Assembly (NCBI GenBank): GCA_963823285.1
Contig: CAWGKX010000008.1
Coordinates: forward strand, 19,166-83,165
Length of the DNA stretch: 64,000 bases
Direction of reading: 5' to 3'
Source: an uncultured Bacteroidales bacterium
Lineage (GTDB): Bacteria; Bacteroidota; Bacteroidia; Bacteroidales; JAGOPY01
Positions 34,001-63,363 of the stretch are shown one piece after another. A model generated the notes under the pieces. That model had not been told where the DNA came from and did not search any database. It saw nothing but the letters and a program-made list of their open reading frames with translations. Positions within the stretch are counted from its first letter, which is position 1. Every line of letters starts with the position of its first letter. Position numbers and translations under genes: made by a program.

Positions 34001-34057
34001 ATAACCCAGAGAGGGTTGGGATAAATAAAAAGCCCATTAGATAATCTAGATATTTAA
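34001..34057 (+). pseudogene. Tyrosine-recombinase C-terminal tail remnant (locus A)
   Basis: Translates ITQRGLG*IKSPLDNLDI*, against ITQKGLGKIKSPLDNLDI* at 61499-61555. Confidence 0.8.
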
Positions 34058-34266
34058 TTTGATTATATTTGATGGGATTAACCAGGGTAATGAGGAAAGA
34101 TTACATTTATAATTACTAGGCAGGATGTATCAGCTATTACACAAAAAGTCAGATTTGGAGATTGCAAATGCAAGACACAATACTACCGGAAATTCGAAGA
34201 GTAAATGCAATAATTCAATTGCTAGATTATAAGGAAAAGCAATACATTTAGCCGAGCGTTATGGAT
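34058..34266 (+). mobile_element. Conserved leader ending in an attI-like core GTTATGGAT (locus A)
   Basis: 200 bp ungapped, 172/200 identical by hand count to 45109-45308; similarity ends at GTT (34258); TATATTTG promoter box at 34064. Confidence 0.75.
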
Positions 34267-34282
34267 TATTGTAAAAGGACAG

Positions 34283-34880
34283 ATGAAACATTGTACATTA
34301 ACCATATTAACAATCATATTCTCAGGTTTTTCAGGATTTAGTCAACTAAACAGACAGATCGACAAGAGCCAAAAAGAGTCAATGAAAGTCCACCATTTGA
34401 GACTGCTAAAGGAATGTCCGATGAGTTGAAAATCCAGAAAAAATATCGACTTCAATACATTGCAGACATTGACAGTATTTTGCAACTATTTTCAAATGAT
34501 ACAATAATTTTGACCGAAAGTTATGATTTCATTTGTTTTGGCTGTCCTTCAGACAATGTTCGAATTTTGGTTGATACGGTTTTGATAAATTACGAAAGAG
34601 ATTTTAAATCAAAAGACTATATCAAGACAATTGAGTTTGTGCCTAAAAAGTCGTTCAATTTAAGAGCTAATCAAAGCGATTGTTTGAGTTGAGAAAAGAG
34701 ATTTGGACAAATAAGGATTGGGATAAAAAACCAGAAAAATATGGAACAGATAAGTGTTTTGATGGGGGACACACGTTCTATACAGTCATAAATCCAAGTG
34801 GAGGCATGATTTCAATGTATATGAGGTGTTGGATTCCAAAAGAAATTAGAAATCAGACAGATGAGAACAACAACCCATAA
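34283..34880 (+). CDS. Cassette-borne hypothetical secreted protein (two frameshifts)
   Basis: MKHCTLTILTIIFSGFSGFSQ signal peptide; pieces 34414-34692 and 34680-34880; the stop lies within ACCCATAAC, complementary (8/9) to GTTATGGAT. Confidence 0.6.
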
Positions 34881-35170
34881 CGGATGTGCAGCGCCCAGCC
34901 CGGAAATTAAAATTTTGCCCGGCCAGGCGGGCGGTAGGTGATCCCTCGCTGCGCTCGGGATGACGCGGTTAGCAGTAGACAATATGAGCGGCGCGGCGCC
35001 ACGGAAGTATTAAGTTCTGACTTTCCTTTGGGCCGCGCCGCTCGGGTATCTCCTCCTACAATCGTCATCCCGAGCGCAGCGAGGGATCTGCTTGTAATTT
35101 GTAATACTAATTCATAACTTTACACTCTCGCACCGCCCGCCTGCCCGGTCAAATAATCCGGCCCAGGATG
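34873..35170 (+). mobile_element. attC-like site containing nested palindromes; 3' core not recognisable
   Basis: AAC-ggatGTGCAGCGCCCAGCCCGG start; perfect 26-bp IR 34940-34965/35063-35088; inner GAGCGGCGCGGC/GCCGCGCCGCTC; outer CAGGCGGGCGGT/ACCGCCCGCCTG. Confidence 0.6.
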
Positions 35171-35187
35171 TATAAAGACAAAATATT

Positions 35188-36097
35188 ATGAGTAAAAAAA
35201 GAACTGGTAAGACTGAATTTGTAAAATGGTTCGGACCAGTGCTTGATGCTTTAAGAGCATTAGGTGGCTCAGCGAAACCCAAGGAAATTACTAAATGGAT
35301 TGCTGAGAAAGGTAATATCCCAGATAATGTTTTGAATGAAAGATACGCAAAATCTGGTGGATTAAAGTTCCCTAACCAAATAGCCTGGGCAAGACAGTAC
35401 TTAGTTTGGGAAGAACTTCTTGCTGCTTCAAAACACGGCGTATGGACTTTGAGTGCTAAAGGTTGGGACACTAAATTAAGCGAAACACAAGTATATGATA
35501 TATTTTTAAAATGGGAAAAATATTTCAAGATTTAAGAGAAGGTAAAGACTCGACTTCCATTGACAATGATGCAGAGAAAATTATACAAATTCAAGAAGAA
35601 GGTGAGCCAGACAGTGACAAAACAGACCTTAAATTCTTTAATAGATGTATTACAAAATTTATCTCCCGCTGGATTTGAACAACTTTGTGGTAGATATTAA
35701 GAGAATATGATTTTGAAGACATAGAAATTACTCAACGTTCACATGATGGTGGTATTGATGGTTACGCAACACTAAAGTTAAATCCGTTTGTAAATATGAG
35801 TGTATTTTTTCAGTGCAAGAGATACAGCGGGACAGTGCCGACAGAAAAAGTTCAAGCATTTATTGGGGTTATGGAAACGAATAAACGAAGTGTTGAAAAG
35901 GGACTCTTTCTTACGACAGGTTCATTTGCCAAAGCTGCATTAGATATAGATAAGAATAACATTAAACTTGAATTAATTGATGGAGACAAATTGTAGAAAT
36001 GTTTGAAAAAGTTGAATTAGGCGTTACACCGAGGACAGTTTATGAACCAGACATGACATTCTTTGAACAGTACAGAGACAAGAAGCCCGGCCGGTGA
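35188..36097 (+). CDS. mrr: Mrr-family (type IV) restriction endonuclease, several frameshifts
   Basis: Mrr_N (LDALRALGGSA...NQIAWAR.YL...GVWTL), SPAGFEQL, SHDGGIDG, FQCKRY, LIDGDKL; stop within CCGGTGAC. Confidence 0.85.
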
Positions 36098-36219
36098 CAA
36101 AGGCTTGCTGCAAGCGGGGCAGCGGGGTTTTGGGACAGTGCAGTTCATTAATCAAACGTTAGTGTATTAGGACAGGAACAACCCCGCGGCATAACAACCG
36201 CGCATCGCCCAGCCCGGGG
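36089..36219 (+). mobile_element. Two truncated attC-like half-sites
   Basis: GCCGGTGAC-AAAGGCTTGCTGCAAGCGGGGC..., then GGCATAAC-AACCGCGCATCGCCCAGCCCGG, matching the half-sites at 34881 and 63340. Confidence 0.55.
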
Positions 36220-36450
36220 TTCTTTAAAATGTTGCATCCGCCAGCTGGTGGACCAAACAAATACAAAATCCAAAATTCAAAAACTCCTCAAATCAGCCAA
36301 TCTCCCAACCATCCAATCCGCAAAGTCCCTTGCTTTTCTCCCCAAAACATCCTACTTTTATCCCACCCAATTCATCCTCAACGATCTTCATAATGATGTA
36401 AGATGAAAACCCTGAAATTCCACTTTTAACTGCCAAAATTCCTTCCGCTT

Positions 36451-38036: not shown

Positions 38037-38186
38037 AAGGTTTTTGTTTGCGGGAGTAAAAGTAGAAAAAAAAGTCAGCAGTCAGCAGTCAGTGGCAGAG
38101 CATATCCATAAAATGGAATTTTCTAAAAGACAGGTTGCAACCCTTCTAATAATATTTTGTCTTTAATAAATATAAGAAATTAGAAA

Positions 38187-38840
38187 ATGAGAAAAATAAT
38201 ATTTACATTACTAATAGCTATCTTAATAGGAAGTAAATACAACAATTTATCCGGACAGGATGTTGAAACTAAAAATCATTGGCTTGAAAAACATCCTCTG
38301 GAATTTGCCATAGGTAATTTCTCCGTCGGGATGCCATTTTCGAAAATATTTATAAACAAATTCTATCCGGCGATAACGGTAGGCACAGAGTTTTATTACC
38401 GGAATAAAACATATTCGCAAATATACCAGACAGCGCATATTGGAGGTTATTATACTGAATACAGCACCTCCGCATTATTTGTGAATACCGAAATAGGATA
38501 CAGATATACATTCGGTTTTGGATTATTTGCCGATGTAAATTTGGGTGTTGGGTATTCTCATCTTTTCAGACCCAATGCCATTTATAAATTAAACAGCAAC
38601 GGAGAATACGAACAAGTAAGTGATTGGGGAAAACCATCATTAATGGCTGACTATTCATTGTCCATCGGCTATGACTTCACAAAACATTTGCGAAAACCCG
38701 TAAGTGTTTTTCTGCGTTATGGAAATTATGTACAATTGTTTTATAATGATCCCGATATACCCGTTTTGCCCCAGAACAGTTTTCAGATAGGAACAAGATT
38801 TTTAATCAATCAGAAACAGAAATCAAATGAAACTAAATAG
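38187..38840 (+). CDS. Hypothetical outer-membrane beta-barrel-like protein
   Basis: Signal peptide, alternating aromatic beta-strand patterns; AT-rich. Confidence 0.55.
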   Translation: MRKIIFTLLIAILIGSKYNNLSGQDVETKNHWLEKHPLEFAIGNFSVGMPFSKIFINKFYPAITVGTEFYYRNKTYSQIYQTAHIGGYYTEYSTSALFVNTEIGYRYTFGFGLFADVNLGVGYSHLFRPNAIYKLNSNGEYEQVSDWGKPSLMADYSLSIGYDFTKHLRKPVSVFLRYGNYVQLFYNDPDIPVLPQNSFQIGTRFLINQKQKSNETK

Positions 38841-40026
38841 ACTATTTATTGTCATTTCAGCACTTGTATTTTTTGCTTTATTCTCATGCAGGAAGGATGG
38901 CTTGAATGAACCTGTTTCATCAGATTGCAGCCTGCCATTTGCAGACAGCACGGCAAACAATCCGAAGAACTTGGCTTACCAGGCATTGCTTGACAAATAT
39001 GTAAAGGAAGGCCTGCCCGGTTTAGTCGTTTTAATAAGAACTCCAAATGAAGGTTTGTGGATTGGGTCATCAGGTTATGCAAGAATTGAAGACAAAACAC
39101 CGATGAAAAAATGCAATATCGTTTATTCAGCCAGTATCGGGAAAACATATTGTGCTGTGGCAATAATGAAACTGGTTGAAGAAGGCAGATTAAATCTTGA
39201 TGATAAAATGAATAAGTATTTACCGGCAGATATATGTGATAATATACCTAATGGCAATACTGCTTCTATCAGAATGCTGCTTGGACATACTTCAGGGATA
39301 CCAAATTTTGACGATGACACACAATTCATTGCAGACGTTTTAAACGATCCATTTTCAATTACGACAGATGATTTAATTAAATATGAATATTGTAAAAAAG
39401 CATTGTTCCAACCGGGGGAAGGTTATGAATATTCATCAACAGGATATGAATTGCTGGCAAAAATCATTGATAAAGTCACAGGCGAAAACCACAGTAAATA
39501 TTACACATCCCATATCTTTCAGCCACTTGGATTAAACAACACTTATTATAAAAATGAAGTTGGTTTTCCCAAACCCGATGGACTGGTCAACTGTTACTTT
39601 GACAGGCTAGGTGACGGAAAAATTGATAATGTATCGGATGTTAATAATCATCTGACACAGGTATTGACAGGGTCGGATGGTATCATGGCTTCAGTTTACG
39701 ACTATTATTTATTTATTGAAGCATTGATGAAAGGGAATCTGGTAAGTTCTCAATCACTGCAACAGATGACTATCTGGCACGATACTCATTCTTCTCACCC
39801 TGAAATCAAATATGGCCTTGGTTTGTTTCAGATTGAAACCAAATATGGATTTAAAGTAGGTCATGATGGGGATGCAATGGGAGCTGGCACTGATATGTAT
39901 TATTTCCCTGAACATGATATTACTATTGTAACAGCTACCGACCTTGGAACGTTTCTCGACACAGATCTGGCGCTGAAATATAACAACGACTTTCAAGACG
40001 ATTTGCTGGATGCCGTGTTTGAATAA
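38827..40026 (+). CDS. Serine hydrolase lipoprotein, beta-lactamase class C / D-peptidase superfamily
   Basis: Lipobox LFSC, SIGK (SxxK), LLGHTSG, YSSTGY, HDG. Confidence 0.85.
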   Translation: MKLNRLFIVISALVFFALFSCRKDGLNEPVSSDCSLPFADSTANNPKNLAYQALLDKYVKEGLPGLVVLIRTPNEGLWIGSSGYARIEDKTPMKKCNIVYSASIGKTYCAVAIMKLVEEGRLNLDDKMNKYLPADICDNIPNGNTASIRMLLGHTSGIPNFDDDTQFIADVLNDPFSITTDDLIKYEYCKKALFQPGEGYEYSSTGYELLAKIIDKVTGENHSKYYTSHIFQPLGLNNTYYKNEVGFPKPDGLVNCYFDRLGDGKIDNVSDVNNHLTQVLTGSDGIMASVYDYYLFIEALMKGNLVSSQSLQQMTIWHDTHSSHPEIKYGLGLFQIETKYGFKVGHDGDAMGAGTDMYYFPEHDITIVTATDLGTFLDTDLALKYNNDFQDDLLDAVFE

Positions 40027-40167
40027 AAAACATAATACCAATTCAAACATGCCGCGCCGTGTTTTAATACATTGGTTTAAATAATATTGTGCCGTACATT
40101 TTTTGCAGCTGATCTGAACATTCCTGGCGTCAATATGTTAATTGAATAACATTCAGATATGCCATAG

Positions 40168-41637
40168 TTGCTTAAAATGATGTGTCACTTTATGCAAAAT
40201 AAGTCTGATCGGGTCAGAATTAGACGTGCATTTTATTCTGCCTTAATATTCCTTTATATAATTTTTGGCCAGGGGCTGTTCGCACAACCAAAGACCTGGA
40301 CCATGAAAGAATGCATCGATTATGCGCTGGAAAAGAATATCCAGCTCAACCAGACGCAGCTCACCAGCAAGCTGAACGACCTCAGCCTTGCGCAGGCCAG
40401 AGCGAACCTTTACCCGAACCTTGCACTCACGGATTATTATTCGCTGAATTTCGGCTATTCGACCAATACTTTCACTTACCAGTCCGGCCAGCAGGATATT
40501 TCGATCAACAATATGGCACTGACCAGCAATTTCACCATATTCAACGGTTTCGAGCTCAGGAACACGGTTAAGCAGTCGAAATACATTTATGATGCGGGCA
40601 ATTTCGATATCGAAAAAGCAAAGAACGATATCCTGCTGGCCGTCGTCGCGGATTACCTGCAGATCCTCTATTCTTACAAAGCGCTGGAAATTGCCCGGAG
40701 CCAGGTGAGCAACACCGCGACCCAGGCCGAAAGGACCAGGAAATTCGTGGACGCCGGCAAACTGGCCGAGGGAAACCTTTTACAGATACAATCCCAGCTA
40801 TCGACCGACAAAGCTTCCGCCGTCAGTGCCGAAAACCAGGTCCAGCTTGCAAAAGTGACGCTGATGCAGATGATGGAACTTCCCATCGTCGAGAATTTCG
40901 AGATTGACAGTTCGGGCATCGTTGAACCGTCGCTCGAAGCGGTCACCTCATCCGCTGATATTTACCGGGTTTCGGAAGGCATCATGCCCGAGATCAGGAG
41001 CGCCGAGCTTAAAACCCAGGCTGCCGAGGCCGGCATCAGGATCGCAAACGCTTCGTACCTGCCCAGGCTCACCCTGGGACTGACCCTTAAATCGGGCTAT
41101 TCCAGCGGGAGCCGTCTTTATTCGACCATGCTCGTCCCGCAAAAAATAGGTTATCTTCAAAATGATCCCGCGACACTTGTTTACGGCGACGTGCCCATTA
41201 CATCAAAACATAATTATCCTTTTACAAGGCAGCTTAAAGACAATTTCGGCCAGGTCATCAACCTGAACCTGACGGTTCCGATCTACAGCAACAGCCAGGC
41301 CAGGTATGGATCCGAAAGGGCTAAGATCGACTATATGAATTCACAGCTCTCCGAGCAGGCAACCAGGGACCAGTTGCGGAAACTGGTGGAGCAGGCCTAT
41401 ACCGATCTTACCGCGGCCATCAAAAATTATGTGGCGGCGCAGGAAATCCTGGTTTCCGAAGAACGGACCTACCGCGACATGGAAAGAAAATTCAACCTCG
41501 GGCTGGCCACCGCCACGGATTTCCTGATCGAAAAGGACAATTATGTAAAGGCACAGTTGTCGGTCGTACAGTCAAGATTCACCTATATTTTCAAATCCAA
41601 AATCGTAGACTTCTACCTGGGTAAAAATTTAAACTAG
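40168..41637 (+). CDS. TolC-family outer-membrane efflux protein (start uncertain)
   Basis: WTMKECIDYALEKN, two OEP repeats, DFYLG. Confidence 0.9.
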   Translation: MLKMMCHFMQNKSDRVRIRRAFYSALIFLYIIFGQGLFAQPKTWTMKECIDYALEKNIQLNQTQLTSKLNDLSLAQARANLYPNLALTDYYSLNFGYSTNTFTYQSGQQDISINNMALTSNFTIFNGFELRNTVKQSKYIYDAGNFDIEKAKNDILLAVVADYLQILYSYKALEIARSQVSNTATQAERTRKFVDAGKLAEGNLLQIQSQLSTDKASAVSAENQVQLAKVTLMQMMELPIVENFEIDSSGIVEPSLEAVTSSADIYRVSEGIMPEIRSAELKTQAAEAGIRIANASYLPRLTLGLTLKSGYSSGSRLYSTMLVPQKIGYLQNDPATLVYGDVPITSKHNYPFTRQLKDNFGQVINLNLTVPIYSNSQARYGSERAKIDYMNSQLSEQATRDQLRKLVEQAYTDLTAAIKNYVAAQEILVSEERTYRDMERKFNLGLATATDFLIEKDNYVKAQLSVVQSRFTYIFKSKIVDFYLGKNLN

Positions 41638-41645
41638 ACTGATCG

Positions 41646-42872
41646 ATGAAAAGAAAGACGGTCATCATTATTTCCATTATTATCCTCGCCATATGCGGCA
41701 GTGATCATTTATTTTTCTCCTGGCAGGAAAAAACAACGCTTACGCCTGGAAAACAGTGCCTGTCGCAAAAGGGAAGATCATCATCCTGGTAAAATCGACG
41801 GGGACCATTGATGCGGATACGACCGTGGATGTCGGGACCCAGGTCACCGGGACCATATGGAAGCTTTATGCCGATTATAATTCCGTGGTGAAAATCGGGA
41901 GATATCATCGCGGTACTTGATACGACTTTTCTTTCCGCATCGAGGATAGATGCACAGGCCACCCTGGAGAGGGCCCAGGCCCAGCTTGACCAGGCCCAGC
42001 GCGATTACGACCGGAATAAGATATTGCTGGATGAAAAAGTCGTCGCGCAATCGGATTATGAAACTACGCTCACCGCGCTTGCAGTTGCAAAAGCGGCCGT
42101 CACTTCGGCCAGGGCAGAGCTTAACCACGCCAAAGTCAACCTGCAGTATGCCGTGATCCGCGCCCCCGTCAACGGCGTTGTTATTTCCAGGAATGTGGAG
42201 CTCGGGCAGACCGTTGTTTCGAGCTTTAATACCCCTACCCTCTTTTCCATCGCGAACGACCTCACGCGGATGCAGGTCCAGGCCAGCGTCGATGAAGCGG
42301 ATATCGGCCAGGTTCAGCCCGGCCAGAAGGTCTCATTCACAGTCGACGCTTACCCGGACGAAATATTCAAAGGCGTGATATCCCAGGTAAGGCTCCAGCC
42401 CGTCATGGTCCAGAATGTCGTGAACTATGTCGTGATCATCAATGTCCCCAATCCTGAAATGAAGCTCAAGCCTGGACTGACGGCCAACATCAGCATCAAT
42501 GTCAATGAGCATGACGATATCCTGAAAGTCCCGTCAAACGCCATTTCCTTCAATCCGCCCGACGATTACCTGAAAAAAATGAGCAACATACCTGATTCGG
42601 TCAGAGCCGGCCTGAAAAAATCAGGCACGCAGACTATGGATGAAAATACGGGTGAATTTATAAAACAGAAAACCGCTTATGTCTGGGTAAAAAAAGGACA
42701 GGAAATTTATCCCGTGAAAGTTACGACAGGGCTGTCGGACGGCAATTTCACCGAAATTTCGGGCAATATCAATGAAGGCGAAGAAGTCGTGACAGGACTG
42801 GGCACGGCGGGAAAATCCGCCAAGGCTTCCAGGAGCCCGTTCATGCCGCAGTTCCCGGGTGGAAAAAAATAA
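41646..42872 (+). CDS. MacA-like efflux periplasmic adaptor (5' frameshifts)
   Basis: ATG 41646 MKRKTVIII; VDVGTQVTG; IRAPVNGVVISRNV; VDEADIGQV. Confidence 0.85.
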
Positions 42873-42881
42873 TGATACCTG

Positions 42882-43640
42882 ATGGCGGAACAGATCATAT
42901 CGGTTACTGACCTGGTAAAAGTCTATCACATGGGCGACGTGGAAGTTCATGCTTTGAGGGGAATATCGCTTTCAATCAACAAGGGGGAGTACATGGCCAT
43001 TATGGGGGCAAGCGGATCCGGAAAATCGACCTTTATGAACATCCTGGGATGCCTTGACCGCCCGACAAGGGGTGATTATTTCCTGGACGGAATCAATGTG
43101 AATACTTACAACAAGAACCAGCTTGCGGAACTGAGAGGCAAGAAGATCGGCTTTATTTTCCAGTCATTTAATATCCTCGCCCGGACCTCCGCACTCGACA
43201 ATGTGGAGCTGCCCCTTTTGTATAACCGGAATGTCAACAGCAAAGAAAGAAAAGAAAGGGCGTACAATGCGCTGAAATCCGTTGGCCTCGCCGACCGGGC
43301 GCGTTCAATGCCCAACCAGTTGTCGGGAGGCCAGCAGCAAAGGATTGCCATTGCCCGCGCCCTGGTAAATGAACCCGTCGTCATCCTGGCCGATGAACCT
43401 ACCGGCAACCTTGACACAAGGACCAGCTACGAGATCATGGAAATTTTCCAGTTGCTGAACGAGAACGGAAGCACCATTGTCATGGTCACCCATGAAGCCG
43501 ATATCGCCCTGTTTGCGCGAAGCAACGTCATATTCCGGGATGGAAGGATCATAGCCAACAACCCGGTAAAGGCGCGCAAAATTGCATCGGAAGAATTGCC
43601 TAATTTACCGGACATAGAAGAGGACCCCCAAAAACAATGA
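42882..43640 (+). CDS. ABC ATP-binding protein (MacB/LolD type)
   Basis: [31 protein letters not shown]. Confidence 0.95.
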
Positions 43641-44857
43641 GAATCTCCAACCTGATAAAAGTCGCCCTGCTTTCCCTCAGCAAAAATAAAATGAGGACTT
43701 TCCTGACCATGCTGGGCATCATCATCGGCGTGGCTTCCGTGATTGCCATGCTGGCTATCGGGCAGGGATCGAAGCATTCGGTGCAGGAATCCATTTCCAG
43801 CCTGGGAACCAACAGCATCCTGATCTTCCCGGGTTCGTCGAACCAGGGAGGCGTCAGGGGCGGAGCAGGATCCACCTCCACGCTGACCGTAGACGATGCC
43901 GATGCCATCAGGGAAAGATGCAACCTGGTCGATCATGTATCTCCCGTCGTGCAGCGCAGGGTGCAGGTGATCTCCGGCTCGCAGAACTGGAATACGCTTA
44001 TCGTAGGCGGCCTTGACGACTACTTCTATATACGCAACCTCGAGCTGGAATCCGGGAACGAGTTCACGGAAACCGATATGAGGGCTGCGGCCAAAGTTTG
44101 CGTTGTGGGCCAGACAGTCATTACAAGCCTTTTCGGGGAAGGCGCCAATCCTATCGGGCAAACCGTCAGGATCAACCAGATCCCTTTCCAGATCATCGGG
44201 ACGCTTGTGAAAAAGGGCCAGAATACATTCGGGCAGGACCAGGATGATATCATCATCGCCCCCTTTTCCACGGTACTTAAGAGACTGGTCAATACGCCCA
44301 ATATCAACATGATCATTGTATCGGCCGTCAGCCAGGACGACATTGATGCGGCAACCGCGCAGATCAGGCCGTTACTGAGGGAGATGCACAAACTGCTTCC
44401 CAATGACGAAGATGATTTCACCATACGCACGCAGGCTGATATAGCGAATATTTTCGGAAGCATTTCCAAGGTCATGACTGTTCTGCTTGCCGCCATAGCC
44501 AGCATTTCCATCGTCGTTGGCGGGATCGGGATCATGAACATCATGCTGGTATCCGTCACCGAGCGGACACGCGAGATCGGCATCCGCATGGCAGTGGGCG
44601 CCAAAGGCCGCCACGTCCTGATGCAGTTCATGATCGAGGCCATATTTATCGGGATACTCGGGGGGATCCTGGGCATCATTCTCGGTGTGATCGTTTCTGT
44701 AGTAGTGGCAGACGCGGCAGGATGGCCCATCTCCATCACTTTCTTTTCAATTTTTCTTTCCTCTGTCTTCTCCGTGGCAGTGGGAATATTTTTCGGCTGG
44801 TACCCTGCGCGCAAAGCGGCAAGCCTGGATCCGATCGATGCATTGCGGTACGAGTGA
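43637..44857 (+). CDS. MacB/FtsX-type ABC permease
   Basis: LTMLGIIIGV, SVTERTREIGIR, PARKAASLDPIDALRYE. Confidence 0.95.
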   Translation: MRISNLIKVALLSLSKNKMRTFLTMLGIIIGVASVIAMLAIGQGSKHSVQESISSLGTNSILIFPGSSNQGGVRGGAGSTSTLTVDDADAIRERCNLVDHVSPVVQRRVQVISGSQNWNTLIVGGLDDYFYIRNLELESGNEFTETDMRAAAKVCVVGQTVITSLFGEGANPIGQTVRINQIPFQIIGTLVKKGQNTFGQDQDDIIIAPFSTVLKRLVNTPNINMIIVSAVSQDDIDAATAQIRPLLREMHKLLPNDEDDFTIRTQADIANIFGSISKVMTVLLAAIASISIVVGGIGIMNIMLVSVTERTREIGIRMAVGAKGRHVLMQFMIEAIFIGILGGILGIILGVIVSVVVADAAGWPISITFFSIFLSSVFSVAVGIFFGWYPARKAASLDPIDALRYE

Positions 44858-45045
44858 AGCAGGGAAGCTTAGAGGCAGTTCAAAGTTCAAAGTTCAAAGT
44901 GCAAAGTGAAAGAACGCAGGGGAGCAGGGAAGCAGGGGAAGCGGGGAAGAGGGGACAAGGAGACTGGGAGACTGGGAGACCGCCGACCGCTGACCGTCGA
45001 CCGCCGACCGTCGACCGCTGACCGCCGACCGCCGACCGCTGACCG
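44857..45045. repeat. Composite array of AAAGTTC, GGAAGCRG, GGAGACTG and GACCGCC/GACCGYY repeats
   Basis: Read directly; abuts the integrase tail of locus B. Confidence 0.9.
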
Positions 45046-45051
45046 GGGTTT

Positions 45052-45108
45052 ATCACTCAAAACAGGGCCTTGAAAAATAATACTCCTGTTGATAATCCTG
45101 ATATTTAA
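45052..45108 (+). pseudogene. Degenerate tyrosine-recombinase C-terminal tail (locus B)
   Basis: Translates ITQNRALKNNTPVDNPDI*; same length and register as 34001-34057. Confidence 0.65.
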
Positions 45109-45317
45109 ATTGATTATATTTGAAAGGATTAACCAAGGCCATGAGGAAAGATTACATTTATAATTACCGGGCAGGAAGTATCAGCTATTACATATAAAGT
45201 CGGATATGAAGATTGTATATGCAAGACACAATACTATCGGAAATTCGAAGAGTAAATGCAATTATTCAATCCCTGGATTATAAGTAAATGGAATACCATT
45301 AGCCGTGGGTTGTAGGC
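45109..45317 (+). mobile_element. Conserved leader ending in an attI-like core GTTGTAGGC (locus B)
   Basis: Paralog of 34058-34257; GTT at 45309, exactly 200 bp after the integrase stop, as in locus A. Confidence 0.75.
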
Positions 45318-45338
45318 AAAATTAAAAAAAGTCTCACA

Positions 45339-45926
45339 ATGAAATATTTGATAGCTATTTTATTGATTCTGTTTTCTTTATCAATTGTGAAAGCTCAAAC
45401 AGATGAAAGTATAATAAATGAATTATTCTTTGATTTATTTGACCCTTTATCTTTTAATTTACTGGATAACCAGATTGATACATTGCTAATTAGCTCAACT
45501 ATTTATAAAACATACTTTGATTACGATTCTGTTAAATTTGAGAGTGCGACTGGTCTAAAAGTTCCAATGGGAATAATTTCAGACTGGAAGAAAAATATGG
45601 AATCTGACAATTATAGCTCTTCTTGGAATGAAAAGGAGCTAAATAAAATTGACACAATTTTTACAGGAAAGGACACCGTTTTTGCAAAGAAACCATTTGT
45701 TAAGTGCTTATCTCAGAGTGAAGAAAAATCACTGTTTGAAAAAACAAAAACAAGACAGCCAATTTATTCAATAAGCAAAATACTGTTTGATGATTCAAGG
45801 GAAAATGCCATATTTGATTTCTTATATACTCCTTGGCCTGGCGATGTAAGTGGATATAAGATTTTTATAAAAAAGGTATTTGGAAAATGGGTGATTATTA
45901 CGAGATTTAATTATTTTATGACTTAA
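45339..45926 (+). CDS. Cassette-borne hypothetical secreted protein
   Basis: Signal peptide, AT-rich, bounded by GTTGTAGGC and GCACACAAC (7/9 complementary). Confidence 0.7.
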   Translation: MKYLIAILLILFSLSIVKAQTDESIINELFFDLFDPLSFNLLDNQIDTLLISSTIYKTYFDYDSVKFESATGLKVPMGIISDWKKNMESDNYSSSWNEKELNKIDTIFTGKDTVFAKKPFVKCLSQSEEKSLFEKTKTRQPIYSISKILFDDSRENAIFDFLYTPWPGDVSGYKIFIKKVFGKWVIITRFNYFMT

Positions 45927-45934
45927 AAAATTCT

Positions 45935-46067
45935 GCACACAACATCATGTATAAAATATTGCCGGTTCATCGGTTAATTAAAGGTTGTTTCCCGCATTAA
46001 GTTTATTGTATCTTGACAGGGAATCGCACCACAATCGACTACTTTTAATACATGTATCGTTGTAGTC
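45935..46067 (+). mobile_element. Complete attC-like site (133 bp)
   Basis: ACAAC...GTTGT cores; CATGTATAAAA pairs with TTTTAATACATG with one extra base, like an attC extrahelical base. Confidence 0.75.
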
Positions 46068-46086
46068 AATTGAAATACAAACAAAT

Positions 46087-46589
46087 ATGATAACTGAAAA
46101 AGCTCCTAATGTTAAAAAACTAGTGGATTACAAAATTCCATTTGTGTTAAGAGATTTAGAAATGGGCTTTAATTCAGCATCCCGAGAAAGAAGCACTTTA
46201 GAGAAATTAAGATACTGGCAGATAATTATTACTTCTGCACTAATTACTTTTTTAATCGGAAATAAAGAAGTTTCAGTGTATTTCTCATTGATTATTCTAA
46301 TCATGAATTTGGTAATTTTTTATATAGAGTTAGGCATTAAATGGCAAATCTTTCTAATAGGTAAAAAGACCGGCGAGCAAGAGAGGCTATTGGAAACAGA
46401 ATCTGATGAAAAATTCGAAGAAAACATAATCAAATGGAAATTTGGAACAGGAATATCAAACCCTTATTATTATAAGACATAAAAGTTATTTTTAAAGAAT
46501 TAATATGGAAACGAAGTATCATACCTTGGTGTTTATTATTAATAACTCTCTCAATTCTACCAATAATATTACAAGTTTTTATAGTTTAA
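46087..46589 (+). CDS. Cassette-borne hypothetical membrane protein (frameshift ~46470)
   Basis: Two TM helices in 46087-46482; a further hydrophobic segment ends at TAA 46589 in another frame. Confidence 0.55.
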
Positions 46590-46593
46590 TCAA

Positions 46594-46920
46594 CTGACCA
46601 CATTCGCGCAGCACCCAGGCCGGCCAAGGGAATTACACGATTGTTCCGCCAGCTGGCGGACGGGCGCCAAAAGATCCCTCTCCGCCAGCCGGCGGATTCG
46701 GGATGACGCAAAATCGAGAGATCAATGAGGCGGCGCGGCACACCTTAAAAAAGTAACAATGGGGTGCCGCGCCGCTCCTGTTTTTATCAGCCAGGCACGT
46801 CATCCCGATCCGCCGAAGGCGGAGAGGGATCTGTTTGCAAAATGTTTTGTAAATTTATAACTTTACTCTCTGTGCCTGGCCGGCCAAAATCCCGCGCCAG
46901 GTCGCTGCGCTCGAGCCTTT
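46594..46920 (+). mobile_element. Degenerate attC-like site with nested REP-like palindromes
   Basis: GCGCAGCACCC...GTCGCTGCGC outer arms; AGATCCCTC...CGGGATGACG / CGTCATCCCG...GAGGGATCT; inner GCGGCGCGGCAC/GTGCCGCGCCGC; homologous to 34873-35170. Confidence 0.65.
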
Positions 46921-46969
46921 TCACCCCTTTTGAAAAAAATATTTTACCATACTGCGAATAAATTTTTTT

Positions 46970-46999
46970 TGTACGTATATTTGTACTTTATTTTGTACA
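46970..46999 (+). promoter_or_regulatory. Probable YefM-YoeB operator: three TGTAC boxes at 12-bp spacing
   Basis: TGTAC at 46970, 46982 and 46994; yefM-yoeB operators are known to use TGTACA hexamers. Confidence 0.65.
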
Positions 47000-47014
47000 G
47001 AAAGGAATATTATT

Positions 47015-47523: not shown

Positions 47524-47538
47524 ACACAAATCAAAAAC

Positions 47539-47709: not shown

Positions 47710-47763
47710 CATTTTAAAAGGAATGAAATATTAATTTTGTCCAAATAAATAACCAAACCGGAT

Positions 47764-49039: not shown

Positions 49040-49127
49040 AGTTCGCAGTTCGCAGTTCCCAGTTCGCAGTTCACAGTTCGCAGCTTCCGTGCCCCTGCAC
49101 CCTTCGCCCTATGCCCTTCGCCCTATG
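49040..49127. repeat. Heptamer arrays (AGTTCGC)x6 and GCCCTTC/GCCCTAT
   Basis: Read directly; right boundary of locus B; the lyase stop codon lies inside the array. Confidence 0.85.
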
Positions 49128-53491: not shown

Positions 53492-54866
53492 ATGATTTAT
53501 GAATTTAAATTGAGGCAATTATCATTCTGGTGGTTTACGGGATGCCTTATAATTTTATCCGGTTGTGGACCAGTGGCTGATAAAGCGAAACAGGCCGATC
53601 GGCAGATGGCGGAAAAGATCAAAGCCGAGTTCGTCCGTTCCTGGAACGGATATAAAACTTATGCCTGGCCGCACGATGTGCTCCTGCCCGTCTCAAAAGG
53701 TCATATGGACTGGTATGAGCAATCGCTGCACATCTCACCTATCGATGCTTACAGCACCATGAAAGTGATGGGCCTCGACAGGGAGGCTGAAGAAGTTCAG
53801 CGCTATGTGGTAGATAGCATTGATTTCAGTAAAGACATTTTCGTGAAGACCTTCGAAGTCAACATCCGTATTCTTGGCGGCCTGCTTGCCATGTATCAAT
53901 TCACGGGTGATGATAAGGTGCTGGCAAAGGCGGAAGATTTCGGCAGGCGGCTGCTTCCCAGCCTATAATTCTTCCACCGGCATTCCTTATTACTGGGTAA
54001 ACCTGAAAACGGGCGAAGTTAAAGGGGAAACCGTAAATATGGCCGAAGGCGGGTCATCCCTGATCGAAATGGGAATGCTGAGCAGGTTTACTGGAAATCC
54101 CCTGTATTATGAAAAAGCAAAACAAGCCAGTATGGCGATCTTCTGCATGCGATCGCACATTGGGCTGGTCGGGGAAAGCATCAACATTAATAGCGGCCGG
54201 TGGACCGACAGCACGAGCCATATCGGGGCCTGCATCGACAGTTATTACGAATATCTTTATAAAGGCTGGCTGCTTTTCAACGACAAGGATCTTAAAAACA
54301 TGTGGGATGAAAGCATCGTCAGTATCCAAAAGTATTTGACCGACGAGGTGGATTCATCTTTATGGTACTGCCGCGTCAACATGAATACAGGCAAAAGGAT
54401 CAGCCGGGTGGTAACCCTTTATGATGCATTTTTCCCGGGCGTGCTGGCTTTATCCGGCGACCTTGACCATGCCGCCCGGTACCAGGATTCGTGGAACAGC
54501 CTCTGGAAGAAATACGGCCTGGAGCCCATGGTTTACGATTACGGAAAAAAGGAGATCCTGGACGCATCTTACGACCTGAATCCGGAGATCATCGAATCGG
54601 CCTATTATCTTTATTATTTCACCGGCGATAAAAAATACAAGGAGCGGGCAGCTCAATATTTCAATGACCTGATGGACTATTGCCGGACCGACGTGGCTTT
54701 CACCTGCATCAAAGACGTGACTACCAAAGAGAAGAAAGACCATATGGAAACCTTTTTCCTGGCGGAGACCCTGAAATATTTATATCTCGTTTTCGCGGAC
54801 CAGGATGAAATCAACCCTGATAAGAGCGTTTTCAGCACGGAGGCCCATCCGTTCAGGAAAAACTGA
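53492..54866 (+). CDS. GH47 alpha-1,2-mannosidase lipoprotein (frameshift ~53960)
   Basis: Lipobox LSGC, FEVNIRILGGLL, DSYYEYL, PEIIES, ETFFLAETLKYLYL, STEAHP. Confidence 0.9.
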
Positions 54867-56244: not shown

Positions 56245-58618
56245 ATGCTCAGACACTTCTTTATAACAGGTCTTCGGAATTTTTGGCGTAACAAGTCATC
56301 AACCATTTTTAATATCCTGGGACTGGCTATCGGTATGGCCACTACCCTTCTGATCCTGGAGTATATCTTCAATGAACTGAGCTATGACCGTTTCCATAAA
56401 AACAAGAACGACATTTACAGGGTCATTATTAACCAGGAAAAAGAAGGCGTTTTCAGCCCGACAGCTTACCTCACAGCTGCTGTAGCACCCTCCATGGCTG
56501 AAGATTTTCCGGAAGTCGGACATTTTGTAAGATTTTCCAATCCCACCGGTGGATTCCTGTCTTTCGGGGATAAAAATTTCCAGGTAGAAAGTCTCACTTA
56601 TGCAGACTCTTCCCTGTTTGATATCTTTTCCTTTACATTGATCCGGGGCATTCCTGAAAAAGCGCTGGCACAGCCTTACCAGGTAGTGCTGTCGGAAAGT
56701 ACGGCAAGGAATATCTTTGGTAACAGTGACCCTATTGGAAGTGTGGTCAGGCTGAATGGAAAGGATAACCTGGTCGTAACAGGCGTCATTGCTGATTTTC
56801 CCGGCAACTCCCACCTGAAATTCGATGCACTGGTCTCTTTTTCCACCCTCTACCTTAATCCCGATTATTACCTGGACTGGAACGGAGGCAATAATTATTT
56901 TTCTTATGTCAAACTTGTCAGGGGGGCTGATATTGAAAAACTGAAGGCAAAGTTCCCCGCCTTTATGGAGAAAAATATCAATTATATGTACCGGCCAGTT
57001 TGGTATCACCCTTCACCTTGAACTTCAACCTCTTGTGAGGATACATCTTTTCTCCAAAAAAGATTTCGGAATTGATGAAGAAGGAGATCTGCAAAGCCTT
57101 TATATCTTTTCGAGCATCGCCATCTTCATCCTGTTAATCGCCTGCATCAACTTCATGAACCTCACAACGGCACGTTCGCTAAGCCGTGCCAGGGAAATCG
57201 GCCTGCGGAAAGTCTCGGGAGCGACACGCAGGAACATCATACTCCAGTTCCTCTTCGAAACCCTGCTGATCAGCTTCCTTGCCTTCCTGGTCTCAATCCT
57301 GCTGGCTGATATATTCCAGGGCAAGTTCGATCAGCTTATGGGCAAAGATCTTTCCATTTTTGGACCGGTAGCATGGAAAATGCTCGGCGGCATGACCCTG
57401 CTGATCCTGCTGACCAGCCTGGCAGCAGGGAGTTACCCGGCATGGTTCATGTCGCGGTTTCCGCCTTTGTTCAGCATAAAAGGAACGGTGGTCTCCGGCA
57501 AGGGAAAGTCAGTGCTGCGCAATGTCCTCGTCGTATTCCAGTTCCTGATCTCCATCGTCCTGATAATTATCACGCTGGTGATCTTTAAACAGATGAATTT
57601 CATCAACTCAAGACCATTGGGATTTGACAGGGAAAACGTCGTGGTAATCCCGATGGTGAGCGAAAAGGCCATGAATAATTACAAAACTGTCAAGGATGCA
57701 TTCAGCCGTATCCCCCAGGTGACGGGCGCCGGCGCATCATCGGAGATCCCGGGTTACGGCTTTACGATGAATGGCTATTTCCCCGAAGGATTTAAGGAAC
57801 CGCTAATGATCAATGTCCTTGACATCGATGCAGATTATTTGAATGTGATGGGTATCCCTGTTATCCAGGGCCGGGGCTTTGATCCCACATCTAATTCGGA
57901 CAGTTCGTCTTTTCTGATCAACGAAACGCTGGCCAAACAGTTGAATTGGGAGAACCCAACCGGAAAGGCCATCTACAGGGATGGAAAACACAAAGTGATC
58001 GGGGTGATAAGCGATTTTCATTTCGCCAGTCTTCATCAATCCATCCAGCCGCTCATCATAACCAAACAACCCTGGCTCGGGTACAATTATTTATCTGTCA
58101 GGATACTGCCGGAAAACCAGGAACAAACCATTAAAAAGATGGAAGCAGCCTGGCTGGCGGTCAATCCTGACGAGCCATTCAATTTTTTCTTTCAGAAAGA
58201 TTACATTAAAGGTGTTTATACCGGTGTCCGCAATACCGGCGAAGCAATTTTGTGGTTTTCCCTGCTGGCTATTTTCATCGCCGGCCTGGGGTTGCTGGGG
58301 CTTGCCAATTTTACTTTCAACCAGCGGAAAAAAGAAATCGGGATAAGGAAAGTGCTTGGCGCCGAATCAGGGAATATCGCCAGGAAGGTAACCTTCGATT
58401 TTCTCAGGCTGGTGCTGATCGCAAGCTGCATTGCCCTTCCGGTGGCCTGGTGGATCAAGGATATGTGGATGGAAAATTTCGCCTACAGGGCTTATATAAG
58501 TTTCTGGATATTTCTCGTTCCTGTGATTATTGTTACTATTTTAGCCTGGCTGACGATTTATTTCCAGGTCAGGAAGCTCGCAAATACTAACCCGGTTGAT
58601 GTTTTAAAGTTTGAATAA
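56245..58618 (+). CDS. Large FtsX/MacB-type ABC permease (frameshift ~57000)
   Basis: NILGLAIG, ELSYDRFH, ACINFMNLTTARS, KEIGIRKVLGA, NPVDVLKFE. Confidence 0.9.
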
Positions 58619-60466: not shown

Positions 60467-60659
60467 ATTCCGCGACGTCCCGGTTTAATCTGGATTGGCA
60501 GAGATCTTGCCCATACTACCTGCAGAGAGACTTGACCGATATTCTGACTATTGAGGCAGTTTTCATCAATTTAAAAACTTCAGGCAAAAATGAAATTTTC
60601 CGGATTCGGAACGGGTATTTTTTCCGATTTTCCGGATTAAGCTATGTGGAAGGGTATTA

Positions 60660-61234
60660 TTAACCACATAGAAACATAGGACACATAGATTCACATAGGA
60701 TTAAAGCATGAAATATCTTCTATGTGTTTCTATGTGTTCTATGTGGTGAAAAATAAACAAATAGAAAAATAGGTTATGACTCAGAAATATCTGGATGGCC
60801 TGACTTATCAGGTCATTGGCGCAGCCATTGAAGTTCATAAAGAACTGGGGCCTGGATTGTTGGAAAGCGTTTATGAAAAATGCATGGTTCATCTTTTGAA
60901 AGAAAGGGGGCTTAAAGTTTCTTTCCAGCAGAGGGTGCCAGTAATTTTTCATAGTGTTTATCTAGAATGCGACCTGAGATATGATATCATGGTTGAAGAA
61001 TCCATAATTGTCGAGATAAAGGCAGTGGATATGCTATTGCCGATTCATTTGGCGCAATTACTGACCTATCTGAAACTGACCAATAAACCCAAAGGAATAT
61101 TGTTGAATTTCAATTGTTTTAATCTATTTAAAGAAGGCCAGAAAACACTTGTAACTGAGCTCTTTTCAAAACTACCGGAATGCTAATAGTATTTTCTATG
61201 TGTTCTTATGTGTCCTATGTTTCTATGTGTTTAA
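60660..61234. mobile_element. GxxExxY gene bracketed by ~41-bp inverted CACATAG/CTATGTG repeats
   Basis: 60660-60700 is the near-perfect reverse complement of 61194-61234; an extra CTATGTG arm lies at ~60718-60750. Confidence 0.65.
60776..61186 (+). CDS. GxxExxY protein (PD-(D/E)XK-like)
   Basis: LGPGLLESVYE, RYDIMVE, VEIKAV, AQLLTYL, GILLNF. Confidence 0.92.
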   Translation: MTQKYLDGLTYQVIGAAIEVHKELGPGLLESVYEKCMVHLLKERGLKVSFQQRVPVIFHSVYLECDLRYDIMVEESIIVEIKAVDMLLPIHLAQLLTYLKLTNKPKGILLNFNCFNLFKEGQKTLVTELFSKLPEC

Positions 61235-61243: not shown

Positions 61244-61555
61244 TACAGGAATTTTGATCCTCAGAAGCTGACCGATGAGCAGATCAGGGAATACCTGTTA
61301 TACCTGATTGAGCATCGCGACATATCGCTGTCTTACCAGAATCAATCGATCAATGCCATCAAGTTTTACTACGAGCAGGTATTGGGGCGGCCGGTGCGGA
61401 CGTATTACATCCAGCGGCCGAAGCGGGGGACGGATATCAGGTATATACAGACTTTGTTGGGGCACGCAAGTTCAAGGACAACAGAGATTTACACTCATAT
61501 CACGCAAAAAGGCCTTGGGAAGATCAAGAGCCCGCTGGATAATTTGGACATATAA
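61244..61555 (+). pseudogene. Integron-integrase-like tyrosine recombinase, 5'-truncated and internally deleted in frame (locus C)
   Basis: YRNFDPQKLTDEQIREYLLYLIEHRDISLSYQNQSINAIKFYYEQVLGRPVRTYYIQRPKR|GTDIRYIQTLLGHASSRTTEIYTHITQKGLGKIKSPLDNLDI*; SAM-like domain fused to box II; no start codon; R and HxxR core missing. Confidence 0.85.
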
Positions 61556-61586
61556 TTTTTCATGATAAAGGTAAATAATATTAAAA

Positions 61587-61612
61587 TAGTATATACTTTT
61601 GTAATATACTAA
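61587..61612 (+). promoter_or_regulatory. TA promoter/operator: TAGTATAT...ATATACTA inverted repeat overlapping a TACTTTTG box
   Basis: Read directly, immediately upstream of the antitoxin. Confidence 0.55.
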
Positions 61613-61621
61613 AAATCTATT

Positions 61622-61861
61622 ATGAAAACACTTTCCCTTAAATTAGATGACAATATATTCCAGGAGACCGAGCAGGTGACCGGTTACCTTAAAAAATCCA
61701 GGAACCGTTATATTAATGAGGCATTGGAATATTACAACAAAATACAGCGGCGGAAAATGCTTTCAGCACAATTGGAAAGGGAATCTAAGCTTGTTGCCGG
61801 AGAATCCTTGGATGTATTGAATGAATTTGAACAATTGGAAGATGAAACCGAAGCAATTTGA
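61622..61861 (+). CDS. Ribbon-helix-helix antitoxin (putative)
   Basis: MKTLSLKLDD...SRNRYINEAL; overlaps the toxin start. Confidence 0.75.
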   Translation: MKTLSLKLDDNIFQETEQVTGYLKKSRNRYINEALEYYNKIQRRKMLSAQLERESKLVAGESLDVLNEFEQLEDETEAI

Positions 61862-62186
61862 AATATGGATTGCGGATCTGAATCCGCGGATTGGAACTGA
61901 GCCGGGAAAGGTGCGGCCTGTCGTTATTGTGCAGACCGATTTGCTGAACAAACATCATCCATCGACAGTAATTTGTCCATTAACGACGAAGGTTCAGCCG
62001 GGTAGCGAGATATTGCGGGTACATTTAGCTAAGGGCGTCTGCGGACTGGATGAAGGCTGTGATGTTATGATCGACCAGGTAAGGGCGATTGACAATGCGA
62101 GGCTGGTAAATAAAGTGGGAAAGTTGCCGCTTAAAGCAGTTAATAAAATAAAATTCAATTTAGGCGTCATATTTGACCTGGAATGA
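61842..62186 (+). CDS. PemK/MazF-family toxin
   Basis: EIWIADLNP..GTEPGKVRPVVIVQ, ICPLTT, DQVRAID..RL. Confidence 0.92.
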   Translation: MKPKQFEIWIADLNPRIGTEPGKVRPVVIVQTDLLNKHHPSTVICPLTTKVQPGSEILRVHLAKGVCGLDEGCDVMIDQVRAIDNARLVNKVGKLPLKAVNKIKFNLGVIFDLE

Positions 62187-62442
62187 TGTATATTTATGCA
62201 ACCAAACGATTGACCTGACCTAATAGAATCGAACATGGCAAAGCTGGCTTTTCTAATTGCATTTACAGGTAAAAAAATGACAACTAATCCCAATGTTGTT
62301 GCAAAACCGATTTATTATTGCAACAACAATGTGTTAACCCATCATTTTTTGTCAGCTAACAGCAATAAAACCATCCTGATAAGTCAAACATAACATCAAT
62401 GTGTTTGCACAAACGTTATAGGCTATTAATTATTGAAGTCAT

Positions 62443-63339
62443 ATGAAATCAAAACTATTTTATTTAGGATTATATATCATGGTTCTGAGCTTCAATGTTG
62501 AGGCACAACAATACAATCCTCTGGTTATTGAAAATGCCCAATGGAAGGTTCTTTATGACGATGATGAGACCCTTTGGCCAGATTATATGTATGGTTGGTT
62601 ATTAAGAGGTGATACAATAATTAACAATATTCAATATAAGAAGTTGTATTCAAGAGCCTTTGAAGACCCATCATCCAATGTGATTATTTCCCAGCAACTC
62701 CAAGGTTTCTTACGGGAGGATACTGCTGAAAGAATTGTTTATGCCTATGGTCAGCAATGGATGGGCTGCGATTCTATAAACCAGGAATTTATTCTCTTTG
62801 ATTTTTCATATGAAATTGGTGACACTGTGGAATTATGTATTCTAACAGAAGAAATGGGGCCTTGTGTGTTATTAGATACTGGTTATTATATGAATTATTA
62901 TGGAGCAGATAGAGAAATTCTTGATTTTGGAGGTGTATATTGTAATTTTATCGAAGGCATTGGCCATTTTCTAGGACTTCTGGAATCACCTGTATATAAT
63001 ATAAGTGGTGGAATAACTACTTCACTTTATGATTATTGCGTTGGATCTGATGAAGATTGTAATGTTACATATGTAAATGTTGATGATCCATTGCAAACGA
63101 CTAAATATCTGATATATCCGAATCCATTCGATAATTACTTCAATATTGAATGCGCTCAAGAAATTCAGCGATTAATAATCCATAGTCTTTCTGGCGAGAT
63201 CATTAAAGTTATTGATGTCAATAATAATACCTCTTGTATTGAAACCAGTTTTTTGAAGCCAGGCATGTATTTTTTGGAAGTTTTCTTCAATAGCCAGCAA
63301 CCTTTCCAATGCAAACTGATAAAAATTAACAGCCTATAA
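62443..63339 (+). CDS. Cassette-borne secreted protein with T9SS CTD
   Basis: Signal peptide, GDTIINN..YKKL, LFDFS..IGDT, IEGIG, IYPNP CTD; bounded by GTTATAGGCT (62415) and AGCCTATAAC (63331), 10/10 complementary. Confidence 0.85.
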   Translation: MKSKLFYLGLYIMVLSFNVEAQQYNPLVIENAQWKVLYDDDETLWPDYMYGWLLRGDTIINNIQYKKLYSRAFEDPSSNVIISQQLQGFLREDTAERIVYAYGQQWMGCDSINQEFILFDFSYEIGDTVELCILTEEMGPCVLLDTGYYMNYYGADREILDFGGVYCNFIEGIGHFLGLLESPVYNISGGITTSLYDYCVGSDEDCNVTYVNVDDPLQTTKYLIYPNPFDNYFNIECAQEIQRLIIHSLSGEIIKVIDVNNNTSCIETSFLKPGMYFLEVFFNSQQPFQCKLIKINSL

Positions 63340-63363
63340 CGGAAGCGCAGCGCCCAGCCCGGA
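63331..63363 (+). mobile_element. attC-like half-site
   Basis: AAC-GGAAGCGCAGCGCCCAGCCCGG, nearly identical to 34879-34903. Confidence 0.7.

Follow-up and report, generated by a model that had tools for sequence, protein, structure and literature searches.

Three loci, A, B and C, in a 64,000-nucleotide (nt) stretch of an uncultured Bacteroidales genome (genome G000, contig C8, 19166–83165; here called the window) are read, with a probability of about 0.8, as broken copies of an integron-like cassette platform, the intact form of which lies on contig C15 of the same genome and encodes a tyrosine recombinase that is likely to insert and excise cassettes as integron integrases do. Positions follow window numbering unless preceded by a contig name. 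The assignment is supported directly by the layout of the loci, the matching cassette ends, exchange at a GTT crossover, the absence from the recombinase of the insertion found in integron integrases (IntI) and a lopsided spacer without left-arm bulges in the recombination sites. Comparison supports the system well; the catalytic activity, the strand used, the promoter, the regulation and any action in trans are inferred. To judge from the sequences, the system works like an integron and lacks two defining features of one, the IntI insertion and the extrahelical bases of the sites.

Window loci and the intact platform

All three loci open with the 3′ end of one and the same tyrosine recombinase gene, as the preliminary description of the window had proposed, with about 18 codons remaining in A, about 18 in B and two fused segments in C. 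The search for a full-length copy that the description had called for led to an intact gene on C15 (937238–936147, minus strand) encoding 363 amino acids with SAM_4 and Phage_integrase domains (PF00589, E 5e-43). The C15 enzyme has R219, K244, H308, R311, H334 and Y343, which are invariant in 29 homologues; this catalytic set is complete in the C15 copy and incomplete in all three window copies. An array of about 17 kb runs behind the C15 gene in the same direction, with repeated cassettes in different positions. One toxin–antitoxin cassette is present twice and a gene-less cassette of 159–160 nt four times (C15 935545, 928969, 927755 and 926457), each copy of the latter carrying the same 177-nt site, which is fully paired next to the core. 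Four further arrays in G000 (one on C5, two on C14 and one on C15 near 500 kb) have no recombinase stub. In two arrays a transposase element, presumably IS1182-like, is inserted at the GTT crossover of a site (C15 934588/932870, locus L001; C14 954251) with an apparent 2-nt duplication.

In its intact form the platform would have a recombinase gene and, behind it and pointing the same way, a docking site and then an array of cassettes bounded by GTT and AAC. The parts recognized in the window are as follows.

34001–34057, +, recombinase remnant of locus A: about 18 eroded last codons with an in-frame stop, 84% identical over 67 nt to the intact C15 gene
34064–34071, +, TATATTTG in locus A: matches the Bacteroidota −7 promoter element; predicted cassette promoter
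34058–34257, +, leader A: ends in an attI-like site (C|GTT crossover, 34257/34258); six platforms of relatives end in a similar way
34258–34881, +, cassette A1: gene of unknown family; core and inverse core match at 9/10 (34258/34881)
34882–35167, +, long hairpin site after A1: right end and core deleted
35188–36098, +, Mrr-type restriction gene (Pfam Mrr_N, Mrr_cat): cassette without a core; frameshifts may be assembly errors
36097–36240, +, end of array A: two truncated left site halves
45051–45308, +, start of locus B: eroded recombinase 3′ stub of about 18 codons to 45108, TATATTTG at 45115, then a leader to an attI-like site
45309–45943, +, cassette B1: 195-residue gene product without a Pfam family; core and inverse core 8/10 (45309/45943)
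45944–46058, +, site B1/B2: complete; ends pair; overall folding not above shuffles
46059–46601, +, cassette B2: inverse core degenerate, 4/10
46602–46916, +, site B2/B3: long; both ends degenerate
46917–47548, +, cassette B3: YefM-YoeB toxin–antitoxin pair; core mutated in the window copy
47549–47700, +, site B3/B4: complete; member of the commonest site family of G000, with many copies in the genome
47701–48380, +, cassette B4: shortened relative of a C15 cassette, homology beginning at the core; inverse core degenerate, 4/10
60607–60642, +, upstream motif of locus C, CCGGGTATWTT-N7-10-TTCCGGATWAA: predicted regulated promoter
60776–61186, +, PD-(D/E)XK_3 gene: within inverted tandem repeats, between motif and recombinase remnant
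61244–61555, +, recombinase remnant of locus C: codons ~121–180 fused to ~324–363; codons ~1–120 and ~181–323 missing
61622–62186, +, antitoxin-like gene and PemK/MazF toxin gene: between recombinase and attI-like site, no cassette ends; homologues adjoin platforms of relatives
62415–63340, +, cassette C1: protein with a type IX secretion system (T9SS) tail; core and inverse core 10/10 (62415/63340); attI-like site just upstream
63341–63371, +, half site after C1: left half; right half deleted
63382–64000, +, next gene after C1: YadA_head repeats

The cassette genes are co-oriented and AT-rich, as had been noted at the outset, with a G+C fraction of 0.28–0.39 compared with 0.44–0.54 in four flanking genes, and the complementary GTT/AAC ends first reported for them hold over 10 nt at C1 (10/10), A1 (9/10) and B1 (8/10). 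The cargo was rightly described as restriction and toxin–antitoxin genes (Mrr, YefM-YoeB and PemK/MazF by Pfam), and the notion of a reverse-oriented, multi-platform cassette system agrees with arrays that run in the direction of the recombinase on several platforms. Two boundaries had to be redrawn. Locus B, which had been extended to ~48994, ends near 48420: the serine hydrolase gene at 48407–48994 has a G+C fraction of 0.47 and no cassette ends were found for it, so that it is not a cassette by composition or by ends. Locus C, given as 61244–64000, begins where proposed, and its array extends beyond the window end as far as about C8 88450.

Leaders A and B are 85% identical over 241 nt, and a non-hairpin leader ending in GTT is conserved 3′ of the recombinase gene, where it would serve as an attI. 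In locus C, codons ~121–180 are identical to the intact gene at 165/178 nt, with no difference in the first ~100 nt, and codons ~324–363 at 97/123 nt; R219, K244, H308 and R311 are missing from this remnant. Contigs of sequencing runs X2, X3 and X5 continue at 35167 with an intact right end of the site after A1. Broken or fused sites often break at an internal CCCAG(C/G)CCGG word common to both arms (C15 925304–924873; window 35158–35167), which suggests a common route of decay. Frameshifts in the cassette genes were rejected as evidence of decay, since single-base indels against three relatives are found in three housekeeping genes as well. The HMGL-like (49216–50003), GH47 (53492–54866) and MacB (56245–58618) genes of the window are split by single-base indels that are absent in relatives and are likely to be assembly errors.

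Cassette ends, sites and recombinase family

In 22 cassettes of G000 the cassette's own inverse core matches 5.3 of 7 variable bases, compared with 2.5 for a foreign one (454 pairs), and the sum of own-end matches was reached by none of 100,000 permutations. These cassettes were picked by eye because a strict chain scan of G000 gave only three oriented sites, most of its sites being broken, and more weight is given to unbiased chain scans of other genomes. The chain scan records sites with self-complementary cassettes on both flanks and is blind to strand; cassette direction was taken from gene orientation and wobble pairs. In a first sample of homologue loci (27 of 80, those with some downstream DNA) it returned 58 linked sites in 12/27 loci, all downstream of the homologue and none upstream. 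In 20 further loci, picked for their long contigs, it returned 25 sites in 118 kb downstream (7/20 loci) and none in 181 kb upstream. Arrays begin 150–250 nt behind the insertion-less gene in many genomes and are long in cultured species, e.g. Arundinibacter roseus and Nibribacter koreensis, the latter with some 15 cassettes and one ~60-nt repeat directly behind the recombinase gene. Without cassette chaining, a simple hairpin scan gave too much noise and was set aside.

Exchange of cassettes between genomes by crossover at G|TT, which the preliminary description had predicted, is supported by comparison: copies in other metagenomes and genomes begin to match at the GTT. The match of cassette C1 starts at 62414/62415 in contigs of runs X1, X3 and X4, with 642 unrelated bases before it in the X1 contig. 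Another X1 match, to cassette A1, starts at exactly 34258 and shows nine differences and two gaps over 647 nt. Cassette B3 recurs in an array of genome G007, there with 10/10 ends. No sequencing run covers half of the queried stretch, and none of those listed is an RNA run.

Some arrays carry further elements. In loci L145 (16732–18600), L091 and L142 these include a group II intron at the inverse core of a site in a Chryseobacterium plasmid array, like IIC-attC introns, and reverse-transcriptase-like genes that follow the first core in G011. Behind the platform at L056 (11069–14480) lie core pairs with almost nothing between them and related genes in repeated copies, and the chain scan gave no sites there.

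The sites are imperfect hairpins with a bottom-strand bias and an unpaired central spacer. The bottom strand is the more stable in 48/58 sites, and wobble pairs favour it at ratios of 134:11 and 76:11 in insertion-less loci and 81:20 in canonical sites. Two window hairpins had been singled out in the preliminary description: that at 47539–47710 lies far above shuffles in stability (z −6.2), and at 45934–46068 only the pairing of the ends was upheld. Bulges were counted with one symmetric alignment rule over the first 14 stem bases of the left arm. There are none in 15 G000 sites, nine in 54 and two in 22 sites of other insertion-less loci, compared with 72 in 40 canonical IntI control sites; the controls were found with looser settings, and the 40 are the remainder of 65 calls once duplicates, calls that were too short or wrongly anchored, and one locus had been removed. 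The attC sites of integrons carry two or three extrahelical bases on the R″–L″ arm (PMC2727003). By the bulge count the sites described here are not attC, and the bulges first taken for extrahelical bases lie on the opposite arm. The right-arm spacer is in excess by 2–4 nt in insertion-less and canonical sites alike. The spacer is reported to be able to impose strand choice on IntI1 even when extrahelical bases are lacking (PMC2727003); on this basis the lopsided spacer, and not flipped-out bases, may give the enzyme its direction here. The predicted cut is at G|TT of the folded bottom strand. The attC sites beside canonical IntI genes in the phylum (L178–L195) combine a right-arm excess of 3–4 nt with normal left-arm bulges, a possible intermediate. 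No Rfam family matched in the window or in five homologue loci, and the Flavo-1 motif, considered as a candidate identity of the sites, found no support in Rfam or the literature.

The recombinase is not an IntI as the family models and alignments define it; it is IntI-like by grouping and insertion-less. The integron-integrase identity implied at first, to be checked by the I2 insertion, does not hold: the insertion region measures 77 residues compared with 119 in all 16 IntI proteins, the 42-residue IntI insertion being absent, and the TIGR02249 score is 219 bits (cut-off 265). The best NCBIfam match is NF040815 (232 bits, cut-off 220), and the best match among solved structures is archaeal XerA. 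The enzyme scores below the cut-offs of both Xer models (TIGR02224, 186 versus 335; TIGR02225, 189 versus 330) and aligns to VchIntIA (PDB 2a3v) in two pieces. In a quick tree of 56 rows, including six Xer proteins, IntI and insertion-less proteins group together apart from Xer with a Shimodaira–Hasegawa-like approximate likelihood-ratio test (SH-aLRT) support of 100; the insertion-less group itself reaches only 81. With both the insertion and the left-arm bulges absent, loss of the insertion and loss of the bases read by it go together. The N-terminus has a weak likeness to HARP (Pfam E 0.0068, below cut-off); the SMARCAL1 HARP chain 4o66 (E 1.7) and Atlas matches, which score below 0.9 and are unnamed, are weak leads only.

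At E 1e-110 the family is present in 62/201 sampled genomes of the class, G000 and an unpublished genome (G415) being counted in. Canonical IntI scores above cut-off in 90/301 genomes of the phylum, only one of these 90 being in the window's class; none was found in the contigs of G000, which is 80% complete and has its own Xer-like genes. The closest homologues of the window recombinase are in Bacteroidales records, and phage records contain only distant, partial ones. Homologues also occur in records titled Neomarinimicrobiota (L011), Delongbacteria (L021) and Rhodobacteraceae (L070), possibly through binning errors; that in L070 has chained sites.

Promoter element and upstream motif

The Bacteroidota −7 promoter element has the form TAnnTTTG (PMC7366714). 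It stands behind the recombinase stop in all three window loci and within 60 nt of it in 32/81 loci, compared with 12/264 and 163/2319 control windows; a σ70 promoter scan of locus A found eight promoters where 7.0 were expected. A cassette promoter is likely to lie just behind the recombinase stop codon. Such a position would explain the co-orientation of the arrays and the surviving stubs, the last recombinase codons being spared by deletions because the promoter probably follows them.

A second element, CCGGGTATWTT-N7-10-TTCCGGATWAA, precedes the intact C15 gene, locus C and the recombinase genes of relatives. With a matrix trained on other genomes, the recombinase ranks first in G000 and ssb second, and the motif also precedes HHH_3, Mg-chelatase-type, radC, UPF0102, nth-bcp-recA, topA and DUF2851 genes. 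We take the HHH_3 gene to be comEA-like, the Mg-chelatase-type gene to be comM and UPF0102 to be yraN. In three relatives the exact pattern has 19 matches and the reversed pattern none, and the motif stands before orthologous ssb, yraN, comM, radC and DUF2851 genes. In other bacteria ssb, comEA, comM, radC and dprA form competence regulons. The motif is likely to be the promoter of a predicted DNA-uptake or competence regulon that includes the recombinase. In this genus the recombinase would probably be switched on together with DNA-uptake genes and so would collect cassettes from single-stranded DNA as it comes in; the V. cholerae integrase captures cassettes from the single strands of transforming DNA (PMC12614218), and the DNA-uptake link parallels this transformation-driven capture.

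Two other identities were considered for the motif. The known Bacteroidetes LexA/SOS boxes, GGA-N5-TCC or CTAA-N5-TTAG (PMC8565304), are ruled out; they show no enrichment upstream of the gene (4 and 0 of 94 loci versus 45 and 1 of 799 windows of the control). The idea that the motif marks the end of a mobile element or a recombination site was set aside, since orthologues of ssb, comM, radC and yraN have it in front of them in four genomes. The comEC gene region (C14 12400–14381, L237) is preceded by GC-rich DNA unlike its surroundings, where the motif is not scorable. In some Cytophagales loci ssb directly adjoins the recombinase (L033 11105–11452; L041). An IVP (four-helix bundle) gene at 50100–50459, inside the HMGL-like region, has the motif at 50048–50083, and the PD-(D/E)XK_3 gene at 60776–61186 also lies behind it; small mobile genes (IVP, PD-(D/E)XK_3, IS200-type and ORF6N) appear to share the motif regulon.

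Dispersal, alternative explanations and known systems

None of five same-genus genomes has a platform at the three places. Place A has nothing or other genes in four of them and a contig break in one; the interval at place B measures anywhere between about 0.2 and 14 kb, and two of the genomes have lone cassette-like genes there; and behind cstA two same-genus genomes lead straight to the gene found 14 kb further on in G000. The platforms of relatives adjoin different genes, and platforms reduced to stubs or with internal deletions are met again in G001, G003, G006 and G011. Dispersal and decay are thus a habit of the family here and not an accident of the window. The window platforms would have arrived in the lineage as whole units, locus C having kept its upstream motif, and then lost the recombinase gene. 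Their docking sites could still be used in trans by the C15 enzyme; such action on the window arrays, which the preliminary description had also suggested, is plausible. Most window sites are broken. The segment from the flippase to the HMGL-like genes (38100–49175) is an insertion hot spot, with 0.2–14 kb of different DNA in five relatives and lone cassette-like genes in G005 and G008.

It is possible, if doubtful, that the system is as described but that the three loci are defunct remains of one or two ancestral arrays, scattered in pieces by duplication and deletion, with no recombinase left to serve them. All three window recombinase copies are broken, 5/7 window junctions are truncated or degenerate, the arrays without stubs add to the tally, and the identity of leaders A and B is that expected after one duplication. 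These signs of decay are set against the ends of the first cassettes, which are the best at each docking site (9/10, 8/10 and 10/10), the mere 9/647 differences between A1 and its copy in another metagenome, and the roughly 100 nt of locus C that are identical to the intact gene. Moreover, leaders A and B carry different first cassettes, so that capture went on after they split. An Xer- or Cre-like recombinase acting on double-stranded sites, with the inverted repeats as two binding arms and folding incidental, is unlikely. It would account for the missing insertion and extrahelical bases and for the XerA and NF040815 matches, and is opposed by site sequences that vary widely while pairing is kept, by arms extending far beyond a binding box, by the lopsided wobble pairs and by the grouping with IntI apart from Xer. 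More improbable still is that the arrays are ordinary attC clusters that have no integron integrase (CALINs), made by a canonical IntI that is missing from the incomplete assembly or was transient on a mobile element, with the insertion-less recombinase a bystander. Canonical IntI is frequent in the phylum and its sites share the lopsided spacer, but it is nearly absent from the class and was not found in G000, arrays start directly behind the insertion-less gene in many genomes, and the sites are without the bases that IntI needs for attC × attC excision (PMC2727003). Chance or assembly artefact, i.e. interspersed repeats and long-read errors mimicking cassettes, is hardly credible and is already refuted for the system as a whole: G000 is indeed full of short tandem and inverted repeats and its housekeeping genes show single-base indels, and against this stand the upstream/downstream contrast in two samples, the long arrays of cultured species and the GTT junctions in independent runs.

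Several observations count against the platform reading itself. Complete sites are present at only 2/7 window cassette junctions, the other five being half sites or degenerate, and one of the two complete sites, the hairpin at 45934–46068, is no more stable than shuffles (z 0.20). No chained sites were found in 8/20 loci of the first sample with at least 4.8 kb downstream, nor in 6/12 of the second with at least 9 kb. Most of the canonical control sites stem from a single family of related genomes. TAnnTTTG lies near the gene end in only 3/20 loci of the wider sample, so that this promoter position does not hold generally. The upstream motif precedes only 6/66 homologues even with a loose pattern and is limited to close relatives; in G000 it also precedes IS200-type, IVP, ORF6N and several unrelated genes, and dprA has only half a motif upstream. 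The IntI insertion has been reported to be essential for integron function (PMC8138268).

Compared with the sedentary chromosomal integrons represented by V. cholerae IntIA (PDB 2a3v), the system shares the SAM_4 and catalytic domains, the C-terminal SPLD end, a GTT crossover with a complementary inverse core at the stop codon, bottom-strand bias and promoterless AT-rich cassettes with toxin–antitoxin and restriction cargo. It differs in the absent IntI insertion, an extra N-terminal domain, the lack of left-arm extrahelical bases and an array that lies behind the gene instead of divergently in front of it. The inverted integrons of Treponema and others have integrase and cassettes co-oriented as here, so that co-orientation alone is not new, but they are classed as IntI (PMC3607928, PMC4889954). 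Loci L177 and L182, from other classes of the phylum, have canonical insertion-carrying IntI genes with co-oriented arrays behind them. CALINs and attG insertions (PMC4889954, PMC8618304, bioRxiv 10.1101/2022.09.11.507474) likewise comprise arrays without a working integrase, through gene loss, rearrangement or action in trans, and the four stub-less arrays of G000 fit this description; the window loci differ in keeping a recombinase stub, leader and docking site, and in sites that are not attC by the extrahelical-base test. The 'integron-like' subgroup of tyrosine recombinases (Smyshlyaev 2021, PMC8138268; NF040815) differs in that the portion of that paper available gives no cassette arrays or sites for insertion-less members. 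XerC, XerD and XerA share a short catalytic domain without the insertion, whereas the present family stands on a separate branch, is patchily distributed and has a changing neighbourhood.

Bacteroidota are listed among the integron-bearing phyla, with IntI defined by its extra domain (PMC8618304, bioRxiv 10.1101/2022.02.06.479319). A literature search, mostly without subscription papers and without supplements, of which those to PMC8138268 and PMC4889954 could be relevant, found no description of this system, nor did the accessible parts of PMC3414803, 10.1101/2025.09.30.679653 and 10.1101/2024.07.02.601686. It is quite possible, if somewhat short of an even chance, that the family represents a second integron lineage, usual in the class Bacteroidia, in which an IntI-sister recombinase acts on folded single strands without insertion or extrahelical bases, reads the lopsided spacer (perhaps helped by the HARP-like domain), is wired to DNA uptake, serves many platforms with one enzyme, is missed by tools built on the IntI domain and furnished the source platform of tet(X3)/tet(X5). 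Since integrons are defined by the IntI insertion and the extrahelical bases of attC, a widespread system without either would widen the definition. It may also show how single-strand recombination worked before the insertion arose, and would open a large uncounted cassette pool to defence and resistance screens.

An N-terminally cut homologue, 63% identical over residues 128–363, is present on many Acinetobacter plasmids and on pHH1107; the two records opened show it immediately in front of tet(X5) and tet(X3). Its stop is followed after about 170 nt by a GTT core, then by tet(X3) and by an inverse core (7/10) with a half site. The layout is that of the platforms, the imperfect 7/10 match keeping the link a lead, and the system gives the 'xerD/tnpF' gene in front of tet(X3) and tet(X5) a concrete origin.

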